From the NCBI GenBank assembly GCA_008080745.1, contig SHMX01000010.1, positions 1-32,000 of the forward strand: 32,000 nucleotides of DNA, read 5' to 3'. The position numbers were made by a program, and so were the translations under genes. This stretch comes from Candidatus Thorarchaeota archaeon (GTDB lineage: Archaea; Asgardarchaeota; Thorarchaeia; Thorarchaeales; Thorarchaeaceae). Below the pieces are notes generated by a model, which had not been told where the DNA came from, ran no database searches, and worked only from the letters and a program-made list of their open reading frames with translations. Shown one piece after another: positions 1-11,697 of the stretch. Position 1 is the stretch's first letter; every line of letters begins with the position of its first letter.

Positions 1-183
1 TTTATGGACAAACTTGGACATCAGAGCGGTGTCCTCCCAGGCAACGGTACTGGGTGAAACTCTGTCCTGGTCAGGGATGCTATGTCTGTAGACCAGACCT
101 TCATCCTGTATCTCCCTATATAAGCTGCTATCAGATCCTGTCCAACAATGTCCAAGTTTTAAACAGCTGTTTGCAACCCTCAG
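1..183. repeat. Partial repeat element (left end outside window) related to the 10371-10707 element; inverted pair of TGGACA-N3-TTGGACA tandem repeats
   Basis: TGGACA-AAC-TTGGACA at 5-20 (+) and TGGACA-TTG-TTGGACA at 139-154 (-). Positions 139-179 align without net gap to 10663-10703. Perfect 12-bp inverted match between 10-21 and 148-159. Confidence 0.55.
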
Positions 184-357: not shown

Positions 358-1497
358 CTATATCGAGTCGATCTCTCTTATTTTTGCGAGAATTTCATGT
401 GGTAATTGTGGCATTCCCGCTGGCTTAGCCATTAGATGAATGGGCGTCGGAGCTGCTGCAGATCGAACCATATGGTATACTTGTCCAAGGTTCTGCTCTG
501 GAACAATGATGTGTTTTACTTCGGTACCCAAATCTGCAACGATATCTTCTGGGAATGGCCAGACGGTCTTAAGACGAAGCAGACCCGCTTTGATGCCTTC
601 CGCTCTTGCATCTTTGATTGCTTTCTTGGCACTTCGAGATGGTGTTCCATAGGCAATAACCGCTATGTCAGCATCGTCAAGCATGAATTTTTCCAAGTCA
701 ATAATATCGTCTGCATTCTTGAGAATTTTATCTTGAAGTCTGGTGACAAGTTTGATTTGGATGTGTTCTTTGTCGCTTGGATAACCTCTCTCATCATGAG
801 TCAGACCCGTTGCATAGAACTGATATTTCGAGCCCAATAGCGCCATAGGTGGGACTAGGTCATCCTCATCTGCCTTGAATGGTAGGTATTCAGATGGATC
901 CACTGTTGGTTGTTTTCGACTTACCAGTTTCAAATCCTTTTCATCTGGAATGACAAGTTTTTCTCGCATATGACCTACAGTTTCATCCGCAAGCACGAAC
1001 ACTGGAGTTCGATACTTTTCCGAAAGGTTGAAGGCCTGAACAGTTTGATCAAACATTTCTTGTACGGACGCAGGTGTTAAAGCTATGATTTGATAGTCAC
1101 CATGACTACCCCATTTTGCCTGCATGATATCACCCTGTTGTCCTCGGGTCGGTTGACCTGTACTTGGTCCACCTCTCATGATATTAACCAGTACCAGTGG
1201 TGTTTCGGTCATAACTGCAAGACCGATGGCCTCAAGCATTAAACTCACACCAGGACCCGAAGTTGCTGTCATGGATTTTGTCCCAGTCCAGGATGCTCCG
1301 ATAACGCTGGTAATAGATGCGATCTCGTCCTCGTATTGGACGTACGCACCTCCATATTGGGGCATTTTTTGTGACATCCACTCTGCAATCTCCGTTGCAG
1401 GTGTAATTGGATATCCTCCAAAATATTTACAGCCAGCAGCAAGAGCACCTTCTGCACAGGCGATATCGCCCATAGTAAACATAACTTTCTCAGGCAT
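358..1497 (-). CDS. korA: 2-oxoacid:ferredoxin oxidoreductase alpha subunit (KorA/VorA-type, no fused gamma domain)
   Basis: Motifs GYPITPATEI, EDEIAS, TATSGPG, RGGPSTGQPT. The start overlaps the korD stop (TAATG). Substrate specificity cannot be determined from sequence. Confidence 0.92.
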   Translation of the reverse strand: MPEKVMFTMGDIACAEGALAAGCKYFGGYPITPATEIAEWMSQKMPQYGGAYVQYEDEIASITSVIGASWTGTKSMTATSGPGVSLMLEAIGLAVMTETPLVLVNIMRGGPSTGQPTRGQQGDIMQAKWGSHGDYQIIALTPASVQEMFDQTVQAFNLSEKYRTPVFVLADETVGHMREKLVIPDEKDLKLVSRKQPTVDPSEYLPFKADEDDLVPPMALLGSKYQFYATGLTHDERGYPSDKEHIQIKLVTRLQDKILKNADDIIDLEKFMLDDADIAVIAYGTPSRSAKKAIKDARAEGIKAGLLRLKTVWPFPEDIVADLGTEVKHIIVPEQNLGQVYHMVRSAAAPTPIHLMAKPAGMPQLPHEILAKIREIDSI

Positions 1498-1859
1498 TAT
1501 TTCTCCTCCTTTTCCTTCTCTTTCTCTTTTTCCTTTTCTAGTTCAAATTCGGGAATTACCGTACCCTCTTGGAGTGCGCCTTCCTCGTATGCCTCTCGTG
1601 CCTCCTCACGGTCCGCAAGAAAAATTGCCATATCTGGACAAATTCTCTCACAGAATTCGCAGTTGACACAGGCCTCTATGTCGCATGCTGTGACGGGATG
1701 GTATCCTTTGCGGTTATAGATGTCTGTGAGACAAAGAACATTCTTTGGACAGAACTCTATACATAGTCCGCATTGCTTACATTGTTCTTGCAGAATAACT
1801 AGCACTTTCTCTCGCTTTCTTGCCGGCTTAGGTGTTATTGGCTTACGTACAGCTGACAT
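1497..1859 (-). CDS. korD: 2x[4Fe-4S] ferredoxin, delta subunit of 2-oxoacid oxidoreductase, with acidic/EK C-terminal tail
   Basis: CKQCGLCIEFCP and CVNCEFCERICP. ATG at 1859 is preceded by AAGGAG; the ORF track starts at TTG 1886. Coupled to korA. Confidence 0.87.
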   Translation of the reverse strand: MSAVRKPITPKPARKREKVLVILQEQCKQCGLCIEFCPKNVLCLTDIYNRKGYHPVTACDIEACVNCEFCERICPDMAIFLADREEAREAYEEGALQEGTVIPEFELEKEKEKEKEKEEK

Positions 1860-1917
1860 CGATGGCTTCTCCTTTTCCGGATACAATGCTTTGTGTGCCT
1901 GATTGCATTGGGGGATT

Positions 1918-1934
1918 ACTGAGTCTTACTCAGT
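1918..1934. promoter_or_regulatory. Candidate palindromic operator in the korD / wHTH divergent region
   Basis: ACTGAGT-ctt-ACTCAGT, a perfect 7-bp inverted repeat about 60 bp upstream of korD. Confidence 0.3.
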
Positions 1935-2063
1935 TTGCCTGAACATGGGCGAACAAAGCACCTATTTTAGCCTTACCTTGGGGGACAACATTGGATATAC
2001 GAAAGAGTCACAGTTAAGAGCCTGTCCATCTATACATGATTCACAAGTGAGGGAGTCTATACT

Positions 2064-2528
2064 TTGCCGGATGAAAATCTTTCAGAAGATGAATTGGCAA
2101 AACAATTGAAAGGAAAGACTCTCCGTGTCTACTGGTACATGTTACGCCATCCAGAGCCGATGACTGCAAGAGAGATTCAACGAGGAACCGATCTGTCCAG
2201 TCCGTCGTTATCCATGCATCATCTGGAAAAATTGCGTGATATCGGACTTGTAGATAAAGACGTGCATGGGCAATACACAATCAAACGAGATGTGCGTGTT
2301 GGTGTATTGAAATTGTTTGTAGGTAGAGGTAGGATGATGGTACCTCGATATCTAACATATGCAACTTTCTATACATCGGTCACTGCAGCATTGTCAACTA
2401 TGCTATGGCGATTCTTTGATTGGTACTCCATAATTTTGCTCATATTGTTGATATCTATGAATCTTGTATTATGGTACGAAGCTCTGAGAGTATGGAATGA
2501 GCAACCATTCCCCGAAGAACAAGAATAA
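2064..2528 (+). CDS. Winged-helix (ArsR-like) transcriptional regulator with two C-terminal transmembrane helices
   Basis: MTAREIQRGTDLSSPSLSMHHLEKLRDIGLVDKD wHTH pattern, followed by two hydrophobic segments. TTG start. Confidence 0.85.
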   Translation: MPDENLSEDELAKQLKGKTLRVYWYMLRHPEPMTAREIQRGTDLSSPSLSMHHLEKLRDIGLVDKDVHGQYTIKRDVRVGVLKLFVGRGRMMVPRYLTYATFYTSVTAALSTMLWRFFDWYSIILLILLISMNLVLWYEALRVWNEQPFPEEQE

Positions 2529-2587
2529 GAAATGTGTACTATGAGTAGAACTATGTACTAAAACACACAATGGGATGATGAATTGAT

Positions 2588-3514
2588 ATGACTGAGAGGA
2601 CTGCTGGATTTGCACTACACATAAGATGTATCTCTATGCAATCTCTTGTTTCATTAGCACTACTTACCTATATCCTTATGATGCCATTGATTGCTAATAA
2701 TCCGGTCTCCATCACGTATCATAACAATCCAAATCTTTCTGCTGATGAGCCTCAGCTAACTTTGTCGTACTATTCTCTTTGGAATACTACTCCTACTCCC
2801 ATATCTTCTGGAGTTCGTATTTCTGGCGATCATGTGGTATTACTAGCAGAATGGTCTCCTGATGGTCTAGTTGATAATACAAGCATCAAAGTTCATGCAC
2901 CCGCGATTCCTATTACCATCTCAAACGAGTCTACAACTGATTCTGTTAGGATAAATACACGTATTCTGGGAAATAATGCTACATGTAGTGTCAATGTGAC
3001 CGCATGGTTATTCAATGGGTCAATCATATCTGAGGTTTTCACTGAAGTTTTCATTGGTAACTTTTTTGTTCCTGATATCTCAATTATTACCCCCACCTCC
3101 GACTCGGTATGGACTGGTGTAAACAATATCACTTGGATTGCATCCGACTTGAATAGTGGAGATGTGTTGACCTACGATGTTTTTCTATCATCAGATTCGG
3201 GGCAGACATATCAAGTACTCGCAAGCGATTTGACAAAAATGTGGTATGAATGGAATTGCACAGGATTGACTATGAATGATACTTATAGGGTCCGGGTACA
3301 GGTGAGTGATGGAATCTATTCTAGTTTTGATACATCAGAAACCTTTACTGCTGGAGATGTTATTATTACGTCAACAACCACTACTACAGTGACTTCTACC
3401 ACCACTACAACTACAGACCCTGACCTCATCACAGCCGCTTTTATCGCAGCTGCTATAGTTTCTAGTGGTATAATGGCAATAGTTGTCTATTATGTGGCAA
3501 GAAAGTGGCTCTAA
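2588..3514 (+). CDS. Secreted, C-terminally anchored surface protein with Ig/FN3-like beta domain and Thr-rich linker
   Basis: N-terminal hydrophobic segment, ITWIASD..YDVFLSSDSGQTY..YRVRVQVSDG beta-sandwich pattern, TTTTTTVTSTTTTTT linker, C-terminal TM helix, many NxS/T sequons. The start could be ATG 2636. Confidence 0.8.
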   Translation: MTERTAGFALHIRCISMQSLVSLALLTYILMMPLIANNPVSITYHNNPNLSADEPQLTLSYYSLWNTTPTPISSGVRISGDHVVLLAEWSPDGLVDNTSIKVHAPAIPITISNESTTDSVRINTRILGNNATCSVNVTAWLFNGSIISEVFTEVFIGNFFVPDISIITPTSDSVWTGVNNITWIASDLNSGDVLTYDVFLSSDSGQTYQVLASDLTKMWYEWNCTGLTMNDTYRVRVQVSDGIYSSFDTSETFTAGDVIITSTTTTTVTSTTTTTTDPDLITAAFIAAAIVSSGIMAIVVYYVARKWL

Positions 3515-3531
3515 GCCACTCTCTTCACCAA

Positions 3532-4428
3532 TTATTCAAGAATTCGGTCGAGGATATCCTGAGTACTTACAACATGCTTGTGGAGACCAAGTTCATCGGG
3601 ATCCAATCCCATTGCAAGTCCTAATAACTGGGTCACATAGATGACGGGAAGTTTGTATTTCGTCTCTCCCATTTCTTTGTTTAGCTGAGCCTGAGAAAAC
3701 TCGAACTGGAGGTGACAGAATGAACACGCGTTCAAAAGGACATCAGCTTCTGCATCCATCATGTTATCCAGTTTTTCTTTCGCAATGTCTACCGAAACTG
3801 GAGCGTTACTTCCTCTAACACCACCTCCAGCTCCACAACACATGTACTTGTCCTTGTACTTGACACTCTTTGCTCCTGTAAGTTCTACAAGATTATCCAA
3901 GAACGAGTGTCTCTGTGTCTTTTCCCACGGGCGAAGCTTGCTGGGTTTCAGCAAATGACACCCATAGTGAACGGCTACTTTAAGACCGTCAAGTGGCCTC
4001 TTGATTTTTTTCTTAAATTCCTCAGGTGGAACCTCTAAAATAAGCTCCAAAATGTGCTTAGCATCAGCCTCTCCCTTATACTTGATACCTGATTTTTTGA
4101 GTACCTTTTGAACCTCTTTTAGTCTCTCGGGGTTCTCATGAACAATATGAAGTGCCTCTTTGAATGTTCCATAGCAACCATTGCAGCCTGTGGTCAGGTC
4201 ATGTCCTGCCATCTCAGCTAACGCAATGTTTCTTGAAGCCAATGCAAGCCATGTGGGCTCATTGAAGGAACGTATGACTCCGGGTGCTGGACAACAACTT
4301 GCTCCTTGAAGGTCTTCTAGTTCGTATCCTAACTCAGGCATAACAGTTCGTATGGATTTCTCAGCGTTAGGAAATCGATTAGGCATTACACAGCCTAAGA
4401 AGAATGAATATGTCTTTGAACCGGTCAT
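3532..4428 (-). CDS. hdrB: Heterodisulfide reductase subunit B (copy 1)
   Basis: Two intact CCG domains: GC..SCCPAPG..GCNGC and HYGCH..CCGAGGG..CSFC. Confidence 0.95.
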   Translation of the reverse strand: MTGSKTYSFFLGCVMPNRFPNAEKSIRTVMPELGYELEDLQGASCCPAPGVIRSFNEPTWLALASRNIALAEMAGHDLTTGCNGCYGTFKEALHIVHENPERLKEVQKVLKKSGIKYKGEADAKHILELILEVPPEEFKKKIKRPLDGLKVAVHYGCHLLKPSKLRPWEKTQRHSFLDNLVELTGAKSVKYKDKYMCCGAGGGVRGSNAPVSVDIAKEKLDNMMDAEADVLLNACSFCHLQFEFSQAQLNKEMGETKYKLPVIYVTQLLGLAMGLDPDELGLHKHVVSTQDILDRILE

Positions 4429-4979
4429 TTGGAATCCTTCTCCATTTCAGCACCTTCAACGAGGTCATTGAACCCAGTTTCTTCCATTATTCGCTTGACG
4501 TCCTTCAGAGCATCCTTATGTGAATGAACGGTAGGTGGTATCTCTTGTAGACCAAGTTCTTTTCTCATTTCTTGATTCGCCTCATCAATGGGAACTGCGT
4601 GTCCCGTCTGAATGAGTTTCTGTGAAACCTTTCTATGCTGAGGTAGCATATACCCCTCTTTCACCGCCATATTTCGCATAATGACAATGGCGTCTGTAAC
4701 TTTGATCTGTCGTGGGCATCTTTCTAGACATGTAAGACAAGTGGCACAAAGCCAAAGATCAGGGCTACTTAGTACCTCATCCTTGAGACCAAGGAGCGCC
4801 TTTCTCATGAGTTCTCGAGTTCTAAATGCTGTACGTCTACCACTAGGGCAGACACTTGAACATGTACCGCATTGAATGCATGTACGTATTCTATCAGCAC
4901 CCGCTTCGACAATCTTGTCCACAAAATCTGGATCCATTTCGTCTGAATCGATTGTTTCTCTACTGATTGAATCAGTCAT
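4425..4979 (-). CDS. hdrC: Heterodisulfide reductase subunit C (copy 1)
   Basis: CIQCGTCSSVCP, WLCATCLTCLERCP and TGHAVP C-terminal region. 4-bp overlap with hdrB. Confidence 0.94.
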   Translation of the reverse strand: MTDSISRETIDSDEMDPDFVDKIVEAGADRIRTCIQCGTCSSVCPSGRRTAFRTRELMRKALLGLKDEVLSSPDLWLCATCLTCLERCPRQIKVTDAIVIMRNMAVKEGYMLPQHRKVSQKLIQTGHAVPIDEANQEMRKELGLQEIPPTVHSHKDALKDVKRIMEETGFNDLVEGAEMEKDSK

Positions 4980-5149
4980 TGGAAGACCTCTGAGTCCGTT
5001 GATATGAACACGAATATTTGGTTCATTTATATGTATAGTTTCAGTTATGGCATTACACGCTAGGTTATCTCCTTTCCCCTCTGAAGAATTGGTGTATTTG
5101 GCAACGGATTTAAGTGTTAGATTATTCGGGTCAAGTATCGGTGGTTACA
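4980..5149. promoter_or_regulatory. Divergent promoter region for the two hdrC-hdrB operons
   Basis: AT-rich TTTATATGTATAG near 5025-5037 and TTTAAG near 5109, at plausible TATA distances from the two starts. Not mapped experimentally. Confidence 0.4.
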
Positions 5150-5692
5150 TTGACCAGTACTGAGGAAAAACCTGCTGTTTTGATTTCCGAGCCCGATACA
5201 GAGTTCATCGAGCTGATTAAGAGGACCGGAGGTCCCAATATTCAATCCTGTTATCAATGTGGTACTTGTAGTGGAAGCTGTCCTGCTGGAGCTAGGACAA
5301 ACTATCTTGTTCGAGGAATTATTCGGAAAGCACTTCTTGGTCTTAAGGAAGAAGTAATTTCCGCACCTGAATTATGGTATTGTACAACATGCTATACCTG
5401 TACTGATCGATGTCCACAAGATGTCAAACCTACTGATGTCATTAAAGCAATTAGGAATATTGCTGTACAAGAAGGATACATGTTACCCCCTCACCAAAAG
5501 GTGGCTCAAAAGGTCTTGGAGACTGGACATGCAGTTCCTTTGGATAAGGAATCTTGGCAAAAGCTTCGAGAGAAAGTTGGACTTGAACCAGTTCCTCCCA
5601 ATGCCAGTAGGTATCCTGAAGCCATTGAAGAAATCATGAAGATATCAAAGAAGAGCGGCTTTGATAAACTTGTAGAGGAAAAGGAGGAGTAA
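5150..5692 (+). CDS. hdrC: Heterodisulfide reductase subunit C (copy 2)
   Basis: CYQCGTCSGSCP, WYCTTCYTCTDRCP and TGHAVP. Likely TTG start at 5150 after GGTGG; the ORF track starts at 5114. Confidence 0.93.
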   Translation: MTSTEEKPAVLISEPDTEFIELIKRTGGPNIQSCYQCGTCSGSCPAGARTNYLVRGIIRKALLGLKEEVISAPELWYCTTCYTCTDRCPQDVKPTDVIKAIRNIAVQEGYMLPPHQKVAQKVLETGHAVPLDKESWQKLREKVGLEPVPPNASRYPEAIEEIMKISKKSGFDKLVEEKEE

Positions 5693-5695
5693 TAA

Positions 5696-6619
5696 ATGGC
5701 AAAGAAACCTCAATTCATGCATTTTCTGGGCTGCATTATACCTCATAGATATCCAAGCATCGAAAGTGCAGTCAAACTAGTGTTCGAGGACCTTGGAATG
5801 GAACTATTGGACATGGAAGGTGCTAGTTGTTGTCCTGCTCCTGGTGTCTTTGGATCTTTTGATAGAGTTACTTGGGCAAGTGTATCTGCTCGGAATCTTA
5901 CGATTGCCGAGGCAGCTGGTGTACCTATCACCACAGGCTGCAATGGCTGTTTTGCTAGTCTTTGGGATGCTAATTACGAGCTCAAACATGATAAAGAATT
6001 AAGAAAATCTGTTAATGAAAACCTTGCCGAGATTGGTCGCGAGTTCAAGGGAACTATTGAAGTCACTCATTATGTTGATGCCCTATACTCTACAGCAGGT
6101 CTTGAAAAAATCAAAAAACATGTTGTTCGTCCGTTAAAAGGTGTGCGAATGGCTTTGCATCCTGGTTGCCACTGGATGCGTCCAAAGGCAATCAAGAAAA
6201 AGGATGACTCAGAAAATCCTCACATCTTTCGTGAGCTTTGTGAAGTTTCAGGGGCGGAATATGTCCCCTATAGGGATGAACTAATTTGTTGTGGTGCTGG
6301 AGGCGCTGTTCGAACTGCAGATGTGAAGGTTGCCCTAGAATTCACAAAACAGAAATTCGAGAGTATACTAGAAGCTGGTGGGGCAGATATTATCGTGACC
6401 CCTTGCCCATTCTGCGAATTGCAACTTGATTTGGGGCAGGTCGAGATTCAGAAGCATTTTGGTGATGAATTCAATTTTGATATCATGCATGTTGTAGAAT
6501 TACTTGCTCTGGCCTTTGGACACGAACCGGAGGAGTTTGGTCTTGATACCCATTTACAATACGCAATGCGAAAGAACCAGCCCAATTGGGAACGGCTCGG
6601 TATAAAGACCGAAGGATAA
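5696..6619 (+). CDS. hdrB: Heterodisulfide reductase subunit B (copy 2)
   Basis: GC..SCCPAPG..GCNGC and HPGCH..CCGAGG..CPFC. 3 bp after hdrC. Confidence 0.95.
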   Translation: MAKKPQFMHFLGCIIPHRYPSIESAVKLVFEDLGMELLDMEGASCCPAPGVFGSFDRVTWASVSARNLTIAEAAGVPITTGCNGCFASLWDANYELKHDKELRKSVNENLAEIGREFKGTIEVTHYVDALYSTAGLEKIKKHVVRPLKGVRMALHPGCHWMRPKAIKKKDDSENPHIFRELCEVSGAEYVPYRDELICCGAGGAVRTADVKVALEFTKQKFESILEAGGADIIVTPCPFCELQLDLGQVEIQKHFGDEFNFDIMHVVELLALAFGHEPEEFGLDTHLQYAMRKNQPNWERLGIKTEG

Positions 6620-6689: not shown

Positions 6690-6907
6690 TCGATTTTTGT
6701 GGCTAGTTTTATTTCTGGAAATATATGCCCTAGTGAAAAGTCTAACTGCTTTCATCCTCTCTCACACTTGATACTATTGTGCTACTATTTAACTTCATCT
6801 GGTAAGTCTGCCGATGTTATGATGAACTCGTTAAATGAGATTGTCGAACAACAAACGTTTTATCGCTCGAATTGATTTCGCTCCATATCACCCGGAGTGA
6901 ATGGAAT

Positions 6908-9900
6908 ATGGCAGATGCCTCAGCAAAGCCCGTTGTCATAATCGGTGCTGGAATCGCTGGTATACGCGCAGCACTTGATCTAGCTGATATGGGCGTCAAA
7001 GTCTACATGGTTGAGAAAGAACCCAGTATCGGAGGCCATATGGCCCAATTGGATAAGACCTTTCCCACACTTGATTGTAGTATGTGTATCATGGGTCCGT
7101 GGATGGTTGACTGTTCTCGCCATCCAAATATTGAGATCCTCGCATACTCTGAAGTAACTGATGTTACTGGGAAACAAGGCGACTTCCAAGTCACAGTTCT
7201 TAAACACACTCGTCGTGTCGATCCGGAAAAATGCACTGGATGCGGTGATTGCGAACGTGTATGTCCAATTGAAGTGCCCAATGAATATGATATGGGTCTC
7301 AAGATGCGAAAGGCTACTTATATTCCCTTTCCGCAGGCGGTACCAAATATTGCAACGATAGATATTGAGAATTGCATTCAATGTATGACCTGTGTGAAAT
7401 CTTGTAAAGCAGAAGCAATCAATTTCGACCTGCCTGATGAAAGTATTGTGATAAACGCAGGATCCATTATTTTAGCAACTGGTTACAAGTTGCTTGATGC
7501 ATCCACAGTTCCAGAGTACGGGTATGGTCGCTATCCAAATGTCGTTTCTGCACTGGAATATGAGAGAATGGTTTCAGCAAGTGGTCCAACCAGTGGGATA
7601 GTTATGCGTCCTTCAGATGGACGGGAGCCACAACGAATAGCCTTCATTCAGTGTGTTGGCAGTCGTGATGTGAATCACTGTGCGTATTGTTCGCGGATAT
7701 GCTGTACCTATGCAACTAAAGAGGCGATCATTACAAAGGAACACACTCCCGATGTTCACATCGATATTCTCTATAATGATATGCGGGCATTTGGGAAAGG
7801 CTTTGAGGAATTTCTCGTTCGGGGTGAGAACGAATATGGCATTAATTATCTCAAAGGATTACCGAGTGAGATATTCGAGGACCCTGCAACCCGCGATTTG
7901 CTGATACGACACAGTGATGCTAAAGGCCATGATGTACTTGAAGATAGATATGATTTAGTAGTACTCTGCCCTGCAATGATTCCCAATGCTAACGATGAAC
8001 TATTAGAAACACTTGGAATAAAAGTTGATGATTATGGCTTTGTCCCAGGTCCTGATTCAATAGAGAGTGTAGCTACTACCGTTCCGGGTATTCATATGTG
8101 TGGTGCGGTAAATAGACCAAAAGATATTCCTGACTCTGTTGCTCAAGGAAGTGCAGCAGCAGCTCTAGCTACTTTAGATATTACCATTCCAAAGTCCGAA
8201 ACTGAAGCCCTTTCTGAGGGTGATCTAGAACTAATGGCTGCTGAACCGCGAGTCGGTGTCTTCATCTGCTCCTGTGGAATTAACATCGCAGGTACCGTAG
8301 ATGTGGATGAAGTCACAGAATATGCAGGCACCCTTCCAGATGTAGTATTTTCAGAAAATCTTCTTTACTCCTGTTCTTCTGACGCTCAAGTGGTCATCAA
8401 GGATGCAATCAAAGAACACAAACTCAATCGTGTTGTTGTTGCATCTTGCACTCCTAGGACTCATGAACCGCTATTTCGTGCAACGATTGAAGAAGCAGGA
8501 CTCAACAAGTATCTCTTTGCAATGGCAAACATCCGAGAACACTGTTCTTGGGTACATCAGCATGCAAAAGACGAGGCAACTGTAAAGGCAATGGATCTGG
8601 TTAGAATGGCAGTTGCACGTTCTCGATTATTAGAGCCTCAGGAAGAAGCTGTCACTGAGATTGAGCCCTCTGTTCTTGTCATCGGGGGTGGTTTATCTGG
8701 TATGGCAGCTGCAGACCTTATCGCTAACAAAGGTTACAAAGTTCATCTCGTTGAGAAGGAAGATCGTCTCGGGGGCCTCTTGAATGATCTCACAACTGTG
8801 AATTTTGATTTTCGCCCAACTTCTGAGCTAGTTTATCATTATGAGTCGCTAATGAAAAATAACGAGAACATAGAAATGTATCTCTCCTCTAAAGTTGTTC
8901 AGGCAAAGGGATCAATTGGTGATTTTGATATCGTTATACAATCTGGAAAAGAAAAGCTGGAATTGAAGGTCGGAGTGGTCATCATTGCTACAGGTGCTAT
9001 TCAGTTAGAAGAGAAGGGTCTCTATGGTCTGAAGAAGATCCCTGAGGTTATGACCGAACTCGAACTCAATAAGAGAATAGACACTGGAGAGGGCATTGAA
9101 GATGGTGATACCTTTGCAGTGATCCACTGTGCTGGGTCTCGTGAGGATGAATCACTTGAGGGGTCCCGTACATGGTGTTCGAGCATCTGCTGCACAATTG
9201 CTATTGAACATTCTCTAGATCTCTTAGAAAAATATCCCAATTCTAGAATTTTCCATCTCTATAGGGATCTTCGCGTCCCATATGAGGTTGAGGACAAATA
9301 CCGTGAGGCCCGGAAGAAAGGCATCGTATTTGTTCGATTTGATGGGGACAATCCCCCCATAGTGAAAAAAGGAAAAGACAAGGCTGTTCTTGTGGAAGTG
9401 CAAGATCAGATACTAGGAGCTCAATTGAATCTAGATGTTGACCATGTAGTCCTTGCTACTGCTATGATTCCCCGTGAAGAGAACAAGGAACTATCTGAAT
9501 TATTCAAAGTCCCTCTCAATATGTCCGGTTTCTTCATGGAGGCGCATCCCAAGTTACGTCCAGTAGATTTTCAAACTGATGGGGTATATGTTGCAGGTAC
9601 TGCTACAGCACCAAAGGGAATCGCTGAATCTATTGCACAGGGACGTGGTGCTGCCGCTCGTGCATTAATTCCGCTTGCTAGGGGTATAAGAAAAGCAGAG
9701 GCCATTGTTTCGGTTGTTGACCCTGAAGTCTGTGTGGGCTGTGGAACTTGTGAGATTAATTGTGCCTATAATGCTATAGAAGTGGTCCCAGGCGATGGTA
9801 GCCATGACTATGCTGTACCTAACCCCGTTCTCTGTCAAGGTTGTGGAAAATGTGCTGCAGGCTGTCCTGCTGGTGCAATCACTATGAAACATTTCACAGA

Positions 9901-10354
9901 TGATCAGATTCTTGCACAAATTAGAACTGCTCTGAAGGATATGCCCGCAAGTCAACCTCGTATTCTTACGATTCTTTGCAATTGGTGTAGTTATGCCGGT
10001 GCCGATAGTGCTGGAGTATCACGCTTCCAGCAACCTACAACCGTTCGAGATATCCGTGTGATGTGTACAGGTCGAGTCAGTGTGACCCATATTCTTGAGG
10101 CATTCCGATTGGGTGCTGATATGGTCTGGATTTCTGGTTGTCACTTTGGTGACTGTCATTATGTTGATGGCAATGTGTCCTTTGAAAGACGATATTCTAT
10201 CGCAAAGAAGATCATCGAAAAAGCTGGTCTTGAATCCGAGCGTCTTCAATTCACACAAATCAGTGCAAGTGAAGGCCCCATCTGGGCTGACACTGTCAAG
10301 AAACTTTCAGAGATTGCAGAGAAATTGGGTCCCAGCCCATTACGAGCCAAATAG
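6908..10354 (+). CDS. hdrA: Double-flavin-module HdrA fused to C-terminal MvhD
   Basis: Two GxGxxG FAD modules (IGAGIAG, IGGGLSG), ferredoxin motifs, GVFICSCG..CS..SCTP..NIREHCSW, CVGSR..CSRICC. C-terminal MvhD CNWCSY..MCTGR..GCHFGDCHY. ATG 6908 follows GGAGTGA; the ORF track starts at 6872. Confidence 0.95.
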   Translation: MADASAKPVVIIGAGIAGIRAALDLADMGVKVYMVEKEPSIGGHMAQLDKTFPTLDCSMCIMGPWMVDCSRHPNIEILAYSEVTDVTGKQGDFQVTVLKHTRRVDPEKCTGCGDCERVCPIEVPNEYDMGLKMRKATYIPFPQAVPNIATIDIENCIQCMTCVKSCKAEAINFDLPDESIVINAGSIILATGYKLLDASTVPEYGYGRYPNVVSALEYERMVSASGPTSGIVMRPSDGREPQRIAFIQCVGSRDVNHCAYCSRICCTYATKEAIITKEHTPDVHIDILYNDMRAFGKGFEEFLVRGENEYGINYLKGLPSEIFEDPATRDLLIRHSDAKGHDVLEDRYDLVVLCPAMIPNANDELLETLGIKVDDYGFVPGPDSIESVATTVPGIHMCGAVNRPKDIPDSVAQGSAAAALATLDITIPKSETEALSEGDLELMAAEPRVGVFICSCGINIAGTVDVDEVTEYAGTLPDVVFSENLLYSCSSDAQVVIKDAIKEHKLNRVVVASCTPRTHEPLFRATIEEAGLNKYLFAMANIREHCSWVHQHAKDEATVKAMDLVRMAVARSRLLEPQEEAVTEIEPSVLVIGGGLSGMAAADLIANKGYKVHLVEKEDRLGGLLNDLTTVNFDFRPTSELVYHYESLMKNNENIEMYLSSKVVQAKGSIGDFDIVIQSGKEKLELKVGVVIIATGAIQLEEKGLYGLKKIPEVMTELELNKRIDTGEGIEDGDTFAVIHCAGSREDESLEGSRTWCSSICCTIAIEHSLDLLEKYPNSRIFHLYRDLRVPYEVEDKYREARKKGIVFVRFDGDNPPIVKKGKDKAVLVEVQDQILGAQLNLDVDHVVLATAMIPREENKELSELFKVPLNMSGFFMEAHPKLRPVDFQTDGVYVAGTATAPKGIAESIAQGRGAAARALIPLARGIRKAEAIVSVVDPEVCVGCGTCEINCAYNAIEVVPGDGSHDYAVPNPVLCQGCGKCAAGCPAGAITMKHFTDDQILAQIRTALKDMPASQPRILTILCNWCSYAGADSAGVSRFQQPTTVRDIRVMCTGRVSVTHILEAFRLGADMVWISGCHFGDCHYVDGNVSFERRYSIAKKIIEKAGLESERLQFTQISASEGPIWADTVKKLSEIAEKLGPSPLRAK

Positions 10355-10370
10355 ACCCAAAAAGATCTAT

Positions 10371-10707
10371 GGATGGAGGGGCTCTTGCCGTTGCACAGAA
10401 CTTGGACAAAGTTGGACCGGAGTCCTCATCTGCTGTCTGTTTCCTGCTTCATCGAGGCTGCATCACTGGTCACAGAGGACTGGTGATGTCTTACTTCCTC
10501 TTCACAGGCGTTTTATGCCTCCGTGCAACTCACGGCGGCATACCTATCTTGGACATGATTCCTAATAAACCCCTCTTCAGATGGTCTAGGTATACACTCC
10601 CGGTGGTCGAGCTGCCGGTGCTACCGTATACAGGTCAATATATCAAAGAGTCAATTGATATATGTCCAAGATTGTCCACGTTTTGATCAGCTGTTGCATA
10701 CCCATCC
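10371..10707. mobile_element. 337-bp non-autonomous (MITE-like or recombinase-mobilised) insertion element
   Basis: Termini GGATGG...CCATCC. TCTAT direct repeat at 10366-10370 and 10708-10712. Subterminal inverted TGGACA-N3-TTGGAC repeats at 10403-10418 and 10663-10678. No recognisable enzyme ORF. Confidence 0.65.
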
Positions 10708-10734
10708 TCTATAATTTTTCATTACCTCAGTAAG

Positions 10735-10788
10735 TTATTTCTTTGGTTTTGGTTTCTTGTCCTTCTTTCCCTTCTTGTCCTTTGCCAT
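10735..10788 (-). CDS. Putative 17-aa Lys-rich small protein MAKDKKGKKDKKPKPKK
   Basis: ATG preceded by a strong GAGGTGA SD with 5-nt spacing, TAA stop. Lies in otherwise empty intergenic space, convergent on hdrA. Confidence 0.55.
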   Translation of the reverse strand: MAKDKKGKKDKKPKPKK

Positions 10789-11178
10789 TTGATTCACCTC
10801 TGTGGCTGTTATGAGATAACTATCCTGAGATATGTTTACAATCAATATACTTGAAGGCTGACTGTACACATGCCTCGCCACACTATTCAAATTTAGAATG
10901 TTATACGCTTTCCTATTCAAATTAAAGGTGCTATTTCGACTTTAGAAATGATTTTGAATCATCAATGATACACTGGTGAATATTTTGGTAATTTCAAAAT
11001 CCGTATTCGATGACAGAGGTTTATGATGACTCCAAAAGCACATCTAAGTACAATTGAAGAAGAATATGTGAGTCACTTAGGATGGAGAACTTTCCCGTCC
11101 TCTATATTTACTGCCGTGACGCTATTGATATAAGTGGTTCATTCATCATCAGAGCTTTGAAGGCTAGCGGTGAAAATC

Positions 11179-11697
11179 ATGACCGAAACTTGGGGTCAAT
11201 TCAAATCATTTGAAGGAAAGCAATTCAAAACCTTTGACGCTGAATTTACACAGAAGGTCTCAAATCTTCTGGGTGGACAAGATCTTACTGCTTGTTTTCA
11301 GTGTGCAAAATGTAGTGCTGGTTGCCCAGTAAGCGACAAGGTGAATATCCAAGTACACGAACTAATGAGGATGCTTCTCTTTGGCCTGGAAGAGGTCTTA
11401 GAAACTGATATGGTTTGGTTATGTACAACTTGTTATACCTGTCAAGAACGTTGTCCACAAGGCATTGATATCACAGACATAATTTTTGGACTGAAGAACA
11501 TGGCTTTTCAAAAAGGTATAACCCCTGCAGGCTACATCAGTGCTCGACAGTCATTATATGACAAGGGAAGACTATATGAACCAACTGACTGGGAACGTGA
11601 AGACTTGGAGCTTGATGATGTACCTGAGCTAGACGTCAACGAGATCAAAAAGATGTTAGAGTCCACGAAACTTATGAAATTACAGGAGACTGAATAG
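11179..11697 (+). CDS. hdrC: Heterodisulfide reductase subunit C-like (copy 3, more divergent)
   Basis: CFQCAKCSAGCP and WLCTTCYTCQERCP. ATG 11179 follows GGTGA; the ORF track starts at GTG 11170. Confidence 0.92.
   Translation: MTETWGQFKSFEGKQFKTFDAEFTQKVSNLLGGQDLTACFQCAKCSAGCPVSDKVNIQVHELMRMLLFGLEEVLETDMVWLCTTCYTCQERCPQGIDITDIIFGLKNMAFQKGITPAGYISARQSLYDKGRLYEPTDWEREDLELDDVPELDVNEIKKMLESTKLMKLQETE

Follow-up and report, generated by a model that had tools for sequence, protein, structure and literature searches.

The window analyzed here is a stretch of 32,000 nucleotides of DNA in which a long gene, hdrA-mvhD, and a small open reading frame (ORF) converge on a spacer that holds a repeated element. 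The gene lies at 6872-10354 on the plus strand and encodes, according to Pfam, a fusion protein of 1,160 amino acids (aa) that combines two FAD/NAD-binding HdrA-like modules with 4Fe-4S domains and a C-terminal MvhD (FlpD) domain. The small ORF faces it at 10735-10920 on the minus strand; it has a lysine-rich tail (MAKDKKGKKDKKPKPKK) and no Pfam match. At the DNA level this ORF is conserved in a genome of the same genus (G001) and partly in two further genomes (G007 and G022). Most other family members lack it and carry a co-directional gene directly after hdrA. The element between the two genes spans 316 bp, and we regard it, with a probability of roughly 0.88, as a non-autonomous derivative of an insertion sequence (IS) of the IS607 family that arose by deletion and resembles a MITE (miniature inverted-repeat transposable element). 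A preliminary description of the window had placed a 337-bp element of a possibly undescribed archaeal family at the same locus, with GGATGG inverted repeats as termini and a flanking 5-bp duplication, TCTAT. We have compared this copy with the other copies in its own genome and with the orthologous loci of related genomes.

Limits of the unit and the host hairpin

The limits of the element can be read from its copies. The genome to which the window belongs was searched as an assembly of 3.16 Mb in 19 contigs that is 98% complete and has repeats at contig ends. It contains 11 full-length copies with pairwise identities of 83-100%, most of them 92-96%, and two of these copies are identical at 316 of 316 positions. 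About five partial or variant copies come in addition, one cut short near a contig end, one internally deleted and several that comprise an end only. In all 11 full-length copies the homology runs from 10388 to 10703, and the flanks diverge at the first base outside. The same limits are seen in DNA contigs (Logan contigs) of the two runs listed for this stretch, both of them marine-sediment metagenomes from one study. Here the assembly paths fork exactly at 10386/10388 and at 10703, and the summed contig depth is about 130 in the flanks compared to 800-5,700 within the element. Neither circle junctions nor population-level empty-site joints were seen in these contigs. The lone joint, 10508->10679, is the deletion joint of the internally deleted variant, a copy of about 146 bp on contig C5 (43641-43786) in which the right-end part with the guide-RNA (omega-RNA) region is joined to the left end's final 25 nt. 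On the minus strand, the unit starts with GG-GTATGCAACAGCTG and finishes with TTCTGTGCAAC-GG; its right-terminal sequence is also given as GTTCTGTGCAAC-GG. The length of 337 bp in the preliminary description has to be corrected to 316 bp. Its view of a non-autonomous, multi-copy mobile element that needs mobilization in trans is supported.

The complete unit was found in none of the 40 related genomes searched, where only diverged homologs of the ends and of the omega-RNA are present. Removal and frame-restoration of the 11 full-length copies and of the C5 variant revealed no long ORF that is interrupted by any of them. Strictly defined MITEs have terminal inverted repeats and a target-site duplication, and neither was found in the copies. 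Its likeness to MITEs is confined to small size, lack of genes, presence in multiple copies and descent from an IS. An ORF of 105 aa at 10369-10686 on the plus strand spans the element; it starts in the unique flank, runs antisense to the omega-RNA and was judged to be spurious.

The bases listed in the preliminary description are all present in the window copy: TCTAT is found at 10366-10370 and 10708-10712, and GGATGG and CCATCC lie between them (Table 1). This arrangement is what speaks for an element of 337 bp that is moved by a DDE enzyme or a tyrosine recombinase. However, the 10 other copies lack both motifs in their vicinity, and in the window copy the motifs lie outside the unit or touch only its last two bases. 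The TCTAT repeats are positioned 17 and 4 bp outside the true ends and are unique to this copy. At the orthologous locus, G001 aligns to window positions 9701-10338 and 10714-11396, leaving a gap of 66 bp against 375 bp in the window. Its spacer downstream of hdrA has GGGAAGG-N9-CCTTCCC in place of GGATGG...CCATCC, with no insertion and no repeated TCTAT, and CC is found at the position equivalent to the insertion point. The G022 genome, which also has the convergent small ORF, carries TGGCCAG-N6-CTGGCCA directly 3' of the hdrA stop codon, again without the element. Since hairpins with other stem bases and without the element occur in both genomes, GGATGG and CCATCC are the two arms of a terminator-like host hairpin downstream of the hdrA-mvhD fusion gene. 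The insertion point is the CC (GG on the minus strand) that opens the 3' arm of this hairpin, at the loop/stem junction. The search for an empty site that had been proposed with the preliminary description thus did return an empty allele, and it is this allele that identifies the presumed termini as host sequence. Copy comparison and empty site together rule out the element with GGATGG termini and TCTAT duplication, and its probability is close to nil.

A second empty site in G001 is orthologous to the copy on contig C4 and has 7 unaligned bases compared to 321 in the genome of the window. Therefore, the host-derived part of the junction sequence is limited to about 2 nt. For two further copies (C2:279776 and C3:47436) the G001 flanks are too diverged or non-syntenic to resolve empty sites.

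The hairpin region itself comprises window positions 10355-10387 and 10704-10730, about 1440-1500 of the G001 locus (L037) and the corresponding G022 locus (L038). In three genomes the convergent small ORF lies opposite hdrA-mvhD, and each of them has its own GC-rich hairpin of 6-7 bp, no more than about 20 nt from the hdrA stop codon. The structure between the convergent genes thus seems to be conserved and may serve as a terminator.

Junction dinucleotides and subterminal repeats

On the minus strand GG is found at both junctions of each of the 11 copies. One of the two GGs is host-derived and represents the crossover dinucleotide, in line with the GG rule of IS607 elements (PMC6188088). The constancy of GG at both junctions in all copies points to conservative site-specific recombination. 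Whether the flanking bases vary or stay constant among copies had been suggested as a check between transposition and site-specific recombination; the constant GG is in favor of the latter. Direct repeats that abut the element ends were seen in none of the 11 copies, and the 5-bp target duplication of Tn3, Tn7 or Mu type that had been considered does not flank the element. Non-adjacent direct repeats of 4-5 bp do occur in the 25-nt flanks of several copies, as chance occurrences. The precision of the junction is also apparent at a related element of 2,642 bp on contig C1, which bears tnpA and interrupts a TldD/PmbA-type gene. Excision of this element together with one GG restores an ORF of 355 aa, and shifts of +-1, +-2 or +5 bases break it; the 5-bp shift speaks against a 5-bp duplication at this insertion. 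Both the DDE model with a target-site duplication and the tyrosine-recombinase model with a 5-bp overlap fail. The enzyme family is that of the IS607 serine recombinases with their 2-bp GG crossover, a family that is already catalogued.

IS607 elements have unrelated termini and an imperfect inverted repeat that is closer to one end than to the other (Chen et al. 2018, PMC6188088). Short direct repeats, often helically phased, bind the transposase TnpA, and GG is present at both ends and in the target, which is not duplicated (PMC6188088). We found every one of these published end features in the element described here: termini, inverted repeat, phased repeats, GG, and no duplication. In no copy is one terminus the inverted repeat of the other (left GGGTATGCAACAGCTG..., right ...GTTCTGTGCAACGG). 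In the common design of the ends, GG and about 20 nt are followed by two TTGGACA units with a spacing of 10 bp, and the opposite end is the mirror image. Together the motif pairs form a 22-nt inverted repeat of 82% identity, 18 and 8 nt from the two ends. The TTGGAC pairs are kept in every copy, and the same end design is present in a tnpB-only element, the tnpA-bearing element and a second miniature family of this genome. In Thorarchaeota homologs TAGACA is found at both ends of the same element. Such a co-variation of the left and right motif would be expected if the motif is recognized by a TnpA that evolves along with it. Within the genome of the window the copies vary least at their two ends, where variable sites amount to 1.8-3% per column; in the region of the tnpA remnant they reach 6.9%. 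The TTGGAC pairs are likely binding sites of the TnpA helix-turn-helix (HTH). The preliminary description had recognized the inward-facing repeats with a 10-bp period, which are indeed non-random and conserved in all copies and in both miniature families. Recombinase sites also seem to be their most plausible reading, apart from the assignment to a tyrosine integrase. A fifth TGGACA copy had been reported in addition. The underlying 11-nt perfect complement between 10546-10556 and 10662-10672 exists in the window, but the consensus of the copies reads GTCTAAG there, and only three of 11 copies have GTCCAAG.

The base 5' of the GG at the left junction is a purine in 10 of 11 copies, and the equivalent right-end position is C (ACGG). 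For CboTnpB a self/non-self rule of TGGG versus TCGG has been described (Zedaveinyte et al., bioRxiv 10.1101/2023.11.20.567912). The R-GG bias of the left flanks against the ACGG of the right end parallels this rule.

The second IS607-type miniature family mentioned above has a length of about 190 bp and is present in about 15 copies of 76-98% identity. Its ends are GG and each is accompanied by a phased TTGGACA pair, its interior is unrelated to that of the 316-bp family, and we found no recognizable omega-RNA core in it. One copy lies in the window itself (1-179, minus strand), where it is cut by the contig start; the other piece is located at C11:1-89. Further copies include C7:112451-112641 and C4:186175-186369. 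Gene-less derivatives outnumber coding elements in this genome, with about 11 plus about 15 copies compared to one intact tnpB and no intact tnpA.

Remnants of tnpA and tnpB and the guide-RNA scaffold

Judged from its sequence, the left and right ends of the 316-bp unit enclose a stub of tnpA and one of tnpB, the latter with a structurally intact guide-RNA scaffold, and the unit appears to be an internal-deletion derivative of a tnpA-tnpB element. The tnpA remnant is of the MerR-HTH serine-recombinase type and resembles, at the codon level, the starts of the tnpA ORFs on contigs C1 and C16, both of which match Pfam MerR and Resolvase. Window positions 10580-10707 share 73% nucleotide identity with the left end and the 5' part of tnpA of the C1 element. 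For the retained region upstream of tnpA we infer a promoter function. The tnpB side is best compared with an element of 1,396 bp on contig C2 that has the same ends and encodes an intact TnpB of 412 aa. This protein has the domains HTH_OrfB_IS605, OrfB_IS605 and Cas12f1-like_TNB with a recognizable zinc ribbon, and it is the one intact cognate TnpB of the genome. Window positions 10388-10540 are 88% identical to the right-end region of the C2 element. In the C1 element the MerR-HTH and Resolvase protein is followed by a TnpB-like ORF of 712 aa.

This 712-aa TnpB/Cas12-like ORF (L024, 702-2840 on the minus strand, corresponding to C1:300704-302839) is located directly downstream of the truncated IS607 tnpA. 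Pfam finds only a C-terminal Cas12f1-like TNB domain in it, and the N-terminal part of about 600 aa has no family match. A partial second copy is present at C5:1-555, and the N-terminus is found again at about C16:9770-9938.

The last 154 nt or so of the unit can be folded with RNAalifold into seven helices that are kept among the copies in this genome and in homologs from four other genera. The fold has 39 pairs with 95.9% of cells paired, and 13 pairs show compensatory changes (for example ACAGA/UCUGU versus CCGAA/UUCGG). None of 500 shuffles scored as high, and slid controls were 29-44% paired. The right ends all terminate in ...AACGG, including those of the other genera and of a tnpA-tnpB element from Chloroflexota. 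In CboTnpB the omega-RNA scaffold has the 3' end ...UCGG (bioRxiv 10.1101/2023.11.20.567912), to which the ...AACGG ends are comparable. The predicted scaffold terminates at the right terminus of the element and abuts the flank that would supply the guide, and the right-end TGGAC pair overlaps its 3' stems. The nearest homologs of both tnpB and omega-RNA are found in metagenome-assembled genomes of Candidatus Thorarchaeota, followed by Hermod- and Promethearchaeota. Together with the marine-sediment origin of the metagenome runs, this likeness of mobile elements makes an Asgard archaeon the likely host.

Table 1. Features of the 316-bp element and its immediate flanks (window positions)
Feature	Position	Strand	Remarks
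Whole repeat unit	10388..10703	-	316 bp including GG at each junction; probable internally deleted IS607-family element; limits from homology in 11 full-length copies, contig-graph breaks and the G001 empty site
Left-end junction GG	10702..10703	-	CC on plus strand; G001 has CC at the equivalent empty-site position
Right-end junction GG	10388..10389	-	CC on plus strand; terminus of the predicted omega-RNA scaffold, ...CAACGG
Left-end TGGAC pair	10664..10678	-	10 bp apart, positions 26-30 and 36-40 from left terminus; GTCCA at 10664-10668 and 10674-10678
Right-end TGGAC pair, inverted orientation	10402..10417	-	positions 16-20 and 26-30 from right terminus; TTGGAC at 10402-10407 and 10412-10417 (plus strand)
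AT-rich palindrome (ATATATCAA/TTGATATAT) and promoter-like region, then decayed first codons (about 28) of tnpA	10570..10662	-	
Remnant of last 47 tnpB codons	10429..10563	-	tblastn, residues 366-412 of C2 TnpB, 68% identity
Predicted omega-RNA (right-end element RNA, reRNA) scaffold	10388..10541	-	seven helices; 88% identical to scaffold of intact C2 tnpB element
Predicted 20-nt guide of read-through omega-RNA	10368..10387	-	host flank, antisense to the 3' untranslated region of hdrA-mvhD; from the TnpB guide position rule
GGATGG, 5' arm of host hairpin	10371..10376	+	past the hdrA-mvhD stop codon; outside the element
CCATCC, 3' arm of host hairpin	10702..10707	+	leading CC is the target dinucleotide for insertion

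These features suggest how the element may have moved and what it might do. An IS607 serine transposase (TnpA), supplied in trans, would bind the phased TTGGAC pairs and pair both ends. Strand exchange across the 2-bp GG would produce a double-stranded circle and a scarless donor site, and the circle would insert at another GG, which here would be the loop/stem junction of the terminator-like hairpin between hdrA-mvhD and the convergent small ORF. Transcription from the retained tnpA promoter region might then run through the omega-RNA scaffold into the flank, and the read-through RNA would direct the intact 412-aa TnpB to the empty site, which would serve retention or homing. That the element acts in this manner as a guide-RNA gene in trans for the single TnpB is a tentative proposal, to which we assign somewhat less than even odds. 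The extension to a whole family of at least 16 dispersed, promoter-equipped omega-RNA genes that program the single intact TnpB in trans with different flank-derived guides is doubtful, and we consider it decidedly less probable. Some copies might be co-opted; in the window the element sits in the terminator hairpin of hdrA-mvhD, and a read-through transcript would be antisense to the 3' end of this gene.

Competing explanations and comparison with known systems

Several observations weigh against the assignment to IS607 or against current activity of the element. The cognate TnpB is closer to the TnpB of ISDra2, a Y1-type element (257 bits, E = 2e-75), than to 8IAZ (188 bits), which we take to be the entry of the IS607-type ISFba1. 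Its omega-RNA overlaps the 3' end of tnpB, as is the case in IS605-type elements. The omega-RNA family RAGATH-18 (RF03064) scored 25.3 bits on the window copy (10441-10508, minus strand) against a cut-off of 44.9, with no match on the tnpB-linked C2 copy or on the homologs; membership in this family was rejected as sub-threshold and the likeness is one of resemblance only. The empty site orthologous to the C4 copy lies in diverged sequence, and the junction is resolved there only to about 2 nt. No intact TnpA is present in the 98%-complete assembly: two matches to PF00239 and one fragment are found, all of them truncated (121 aa, 143-144 aa, and the fragment). Since only truncated tnpA genes were found, current mobility is unproven, although an intact tnpA could lie in unassembled repeats, given the repeats at contig ends. 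The two copies that are identical over their whole length suggest recent movement, for which gene conversion is an alternative. Moreover, the binding of TnpA to TTGGAC is presumed, as are the activity of the promoter and a function of the omega-RNA.

The most serious competitor accepts the same IS607 origin and holds that the element is an immobile fossil: no working transposase would be left, and the decaying copies would have no present function, the guide RNA included. It fits with the truncation of every tnpA in the assembly, with the absence of the full unit from the relatives searched and with copies that differ by up to 17%, several of them partial and internally deleted. However, most copies are much closer to each other than that, two do not differ at all, and the tnpA remnant has changed more than the ends and the stems of the omega-RNA. 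An intact ORF encodes the cognate TnpB with its Cas12f1-like TNB domain and zinc ribbon, and the missing tnpA may simply have escaped assembly. On balance we regard a complete loss of mobility and function as unlikely, but it keeps a considerable share of the probability. Far less can be said for an IS200/IS605-type palindrome-associated transposable element (PATE) that a Y1 HUH transposase would have moved in single-stranded form. Such elements would explain why terminal inverted repeats and target-site duplications are missing, the short palindromes near both ends, the ISDra2-like TnpB and the overlap of omega-RNA and tnpB. Yet a Y1 transposase (Y1_Tnp, PF01797) was found neither in the genome of the window nor beside the 80 closest tnpB loci that we collected from public genomes. 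Upstream of these loci 32 ORFs lie on the same strand as tnpB, and 22 of them encode Resolvase-domain proteins; none of the 42 ORFs scanned there encodes a Y1 transposase. Associations between TnpB and transposases are known to be polyphyletic (PMC10691335), and the Resolvase-type neighbors of the tnpB relatives are in agreement with this. The element also contains the remnant of a serine-recombinase tnpA, its left flanks are variable and, apart from GG, share no target of 4-5 nt next to the left end on its 5' side, and the same motif is found inverted at both ends instead of end-specific hairpins. A PATE is therefore very improbable.

It may also be asked if the segment is a housekeeping structured RNA gene, such as those of RNase P RNA or signal recognition particle (SRP) RNA, whose terminal helix mimics inverted repeats. 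The segment has a higher GC content than the spacer downstream of it, and its predicted folding is superior to that of shuffled sequence (z = -3.7 on the plus strand and -2.5 on the minus strand). However, no Rfam family reaches its threshold, and the sequence is present in more than 11 copies with differing flanks and is absent from the orthologous site in G001. An RNase P or SRP RNA gene was rejected on these grounds, and we attach hardly any weight to a housekeeping RNA of any kind.

Taking the element as a deletion derivative of an IS607-family member, its likeness to the elements that define this family is extensive. As in IS607 of Helicobacter pylori and IS1535 of Mycobacterium tuberculosis, there are no terminal inverted repeats and no target duplication, GG is found at the termini and in the target, and an imperfect inverted repeat at unequal distances is combined with phased subterminal direct repeats. 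The parents of the 316-bp element also share with IS607 and IS1535 the order of a MerR-HTH and serine-recombinase tnpA followed by tnpB. Unlike these elements, the window copy lacks both genes and has 316 bp instead of about 1.4-2.6 kb. The left end of IS1535 has four motifs, while only two clear motifs are found at each end here. A further difference is the host, which is uncultured, probably an Asgard archaeon, and in whose genome no intact TnpA was seen. Neither the mechanism nor the family is new, and what had seemed a new archaeal transposon family is corrected to a well-understood one. The case also illustrates that, when an insertion splits a host hairpin, the arms can be mistaken for inverted-repeat termini beside a duplication. 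At the same time the locus is a clean natural example of the IS607 rules, with GG crossover, scarless empty site and phased subterminal repeats.

Close parallels exist to the CboIStron, where TnpA(S), acting in trans, excises a gene-less mini-IS reduced to its ends and strictly requires GG (bioRxiv 10.1101/2023.11.20.567912). Here as well we find a gene-less mini-element and a scaffold that ends in ...CGG at the right end, and the core GG forms the end of the transposon-associated motif (TAM), which at position -3 is unlike the right-end sequence. In contrast to the CboIStron, the 316-bp element has no group I intron, and its target bias is R-GG compared to TGGG. The mini-IS of the CboIStron was engineered, whereas the 316-bp element is natural and amplified. 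The closest solved natural relative of the cognate TnpB is the ISDra2 TnpB-omega-RNA complex (PDB 8H1J, 8EXA), in which the omega-RNA likewise overlaps the 3' end of tnpB. ISDra2 has a Y1 transposase and the target TTGAT, while serine recombinases are the neighbors in the clade of the cognate TnpB. With its CCUG...CAGG outer stem, its GAGG...CCUC inner stem and the strand CGAUGAAGCAGGAA, the scaffold resembles the consensus of RAGATH-18, the reRNA of IS607 TnpBs such as ISFba1 (Cell Res 2024, PMC11061315). In ISFba1 reRNA and coding sequence are independent of each other, whereas the scaffold of the 316-bp family overlaps the coding sequence, and the cognate TnpB is more distant (188 bits to 8IAZ).

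In a literature search that was not exhaustive we found no published description of natural IS607-derived miniature elements that keep a guide-RNA scaffold. The nearest counterparts are the PATE-like IS200/IS605 elements with omega-RNA (Meers et al., bioRxiv 10.1101/2023.03.14.532601), which are likewise gene-less and multi-copy and keep their ends and the omega-RNA. Both kinds of element would need TnpA and TnpB in trans. PATEs make use of a Y1 transposase, of hairpins in subterminal position and of a TAM that is conserved 5' of the left end, whereas the 316-bp element has serine-recombinase parentage and GG junctions. The family may thus be of interest for work on TnpB guide RNAs in trans and on mobile DNA in Asgard genomes. 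If its copies do program the single TnpB, they would represent the serine-recombinase (IS607-type) counterpart of omega-RNA-bearing PATEs in a probable Asgard archaeon.

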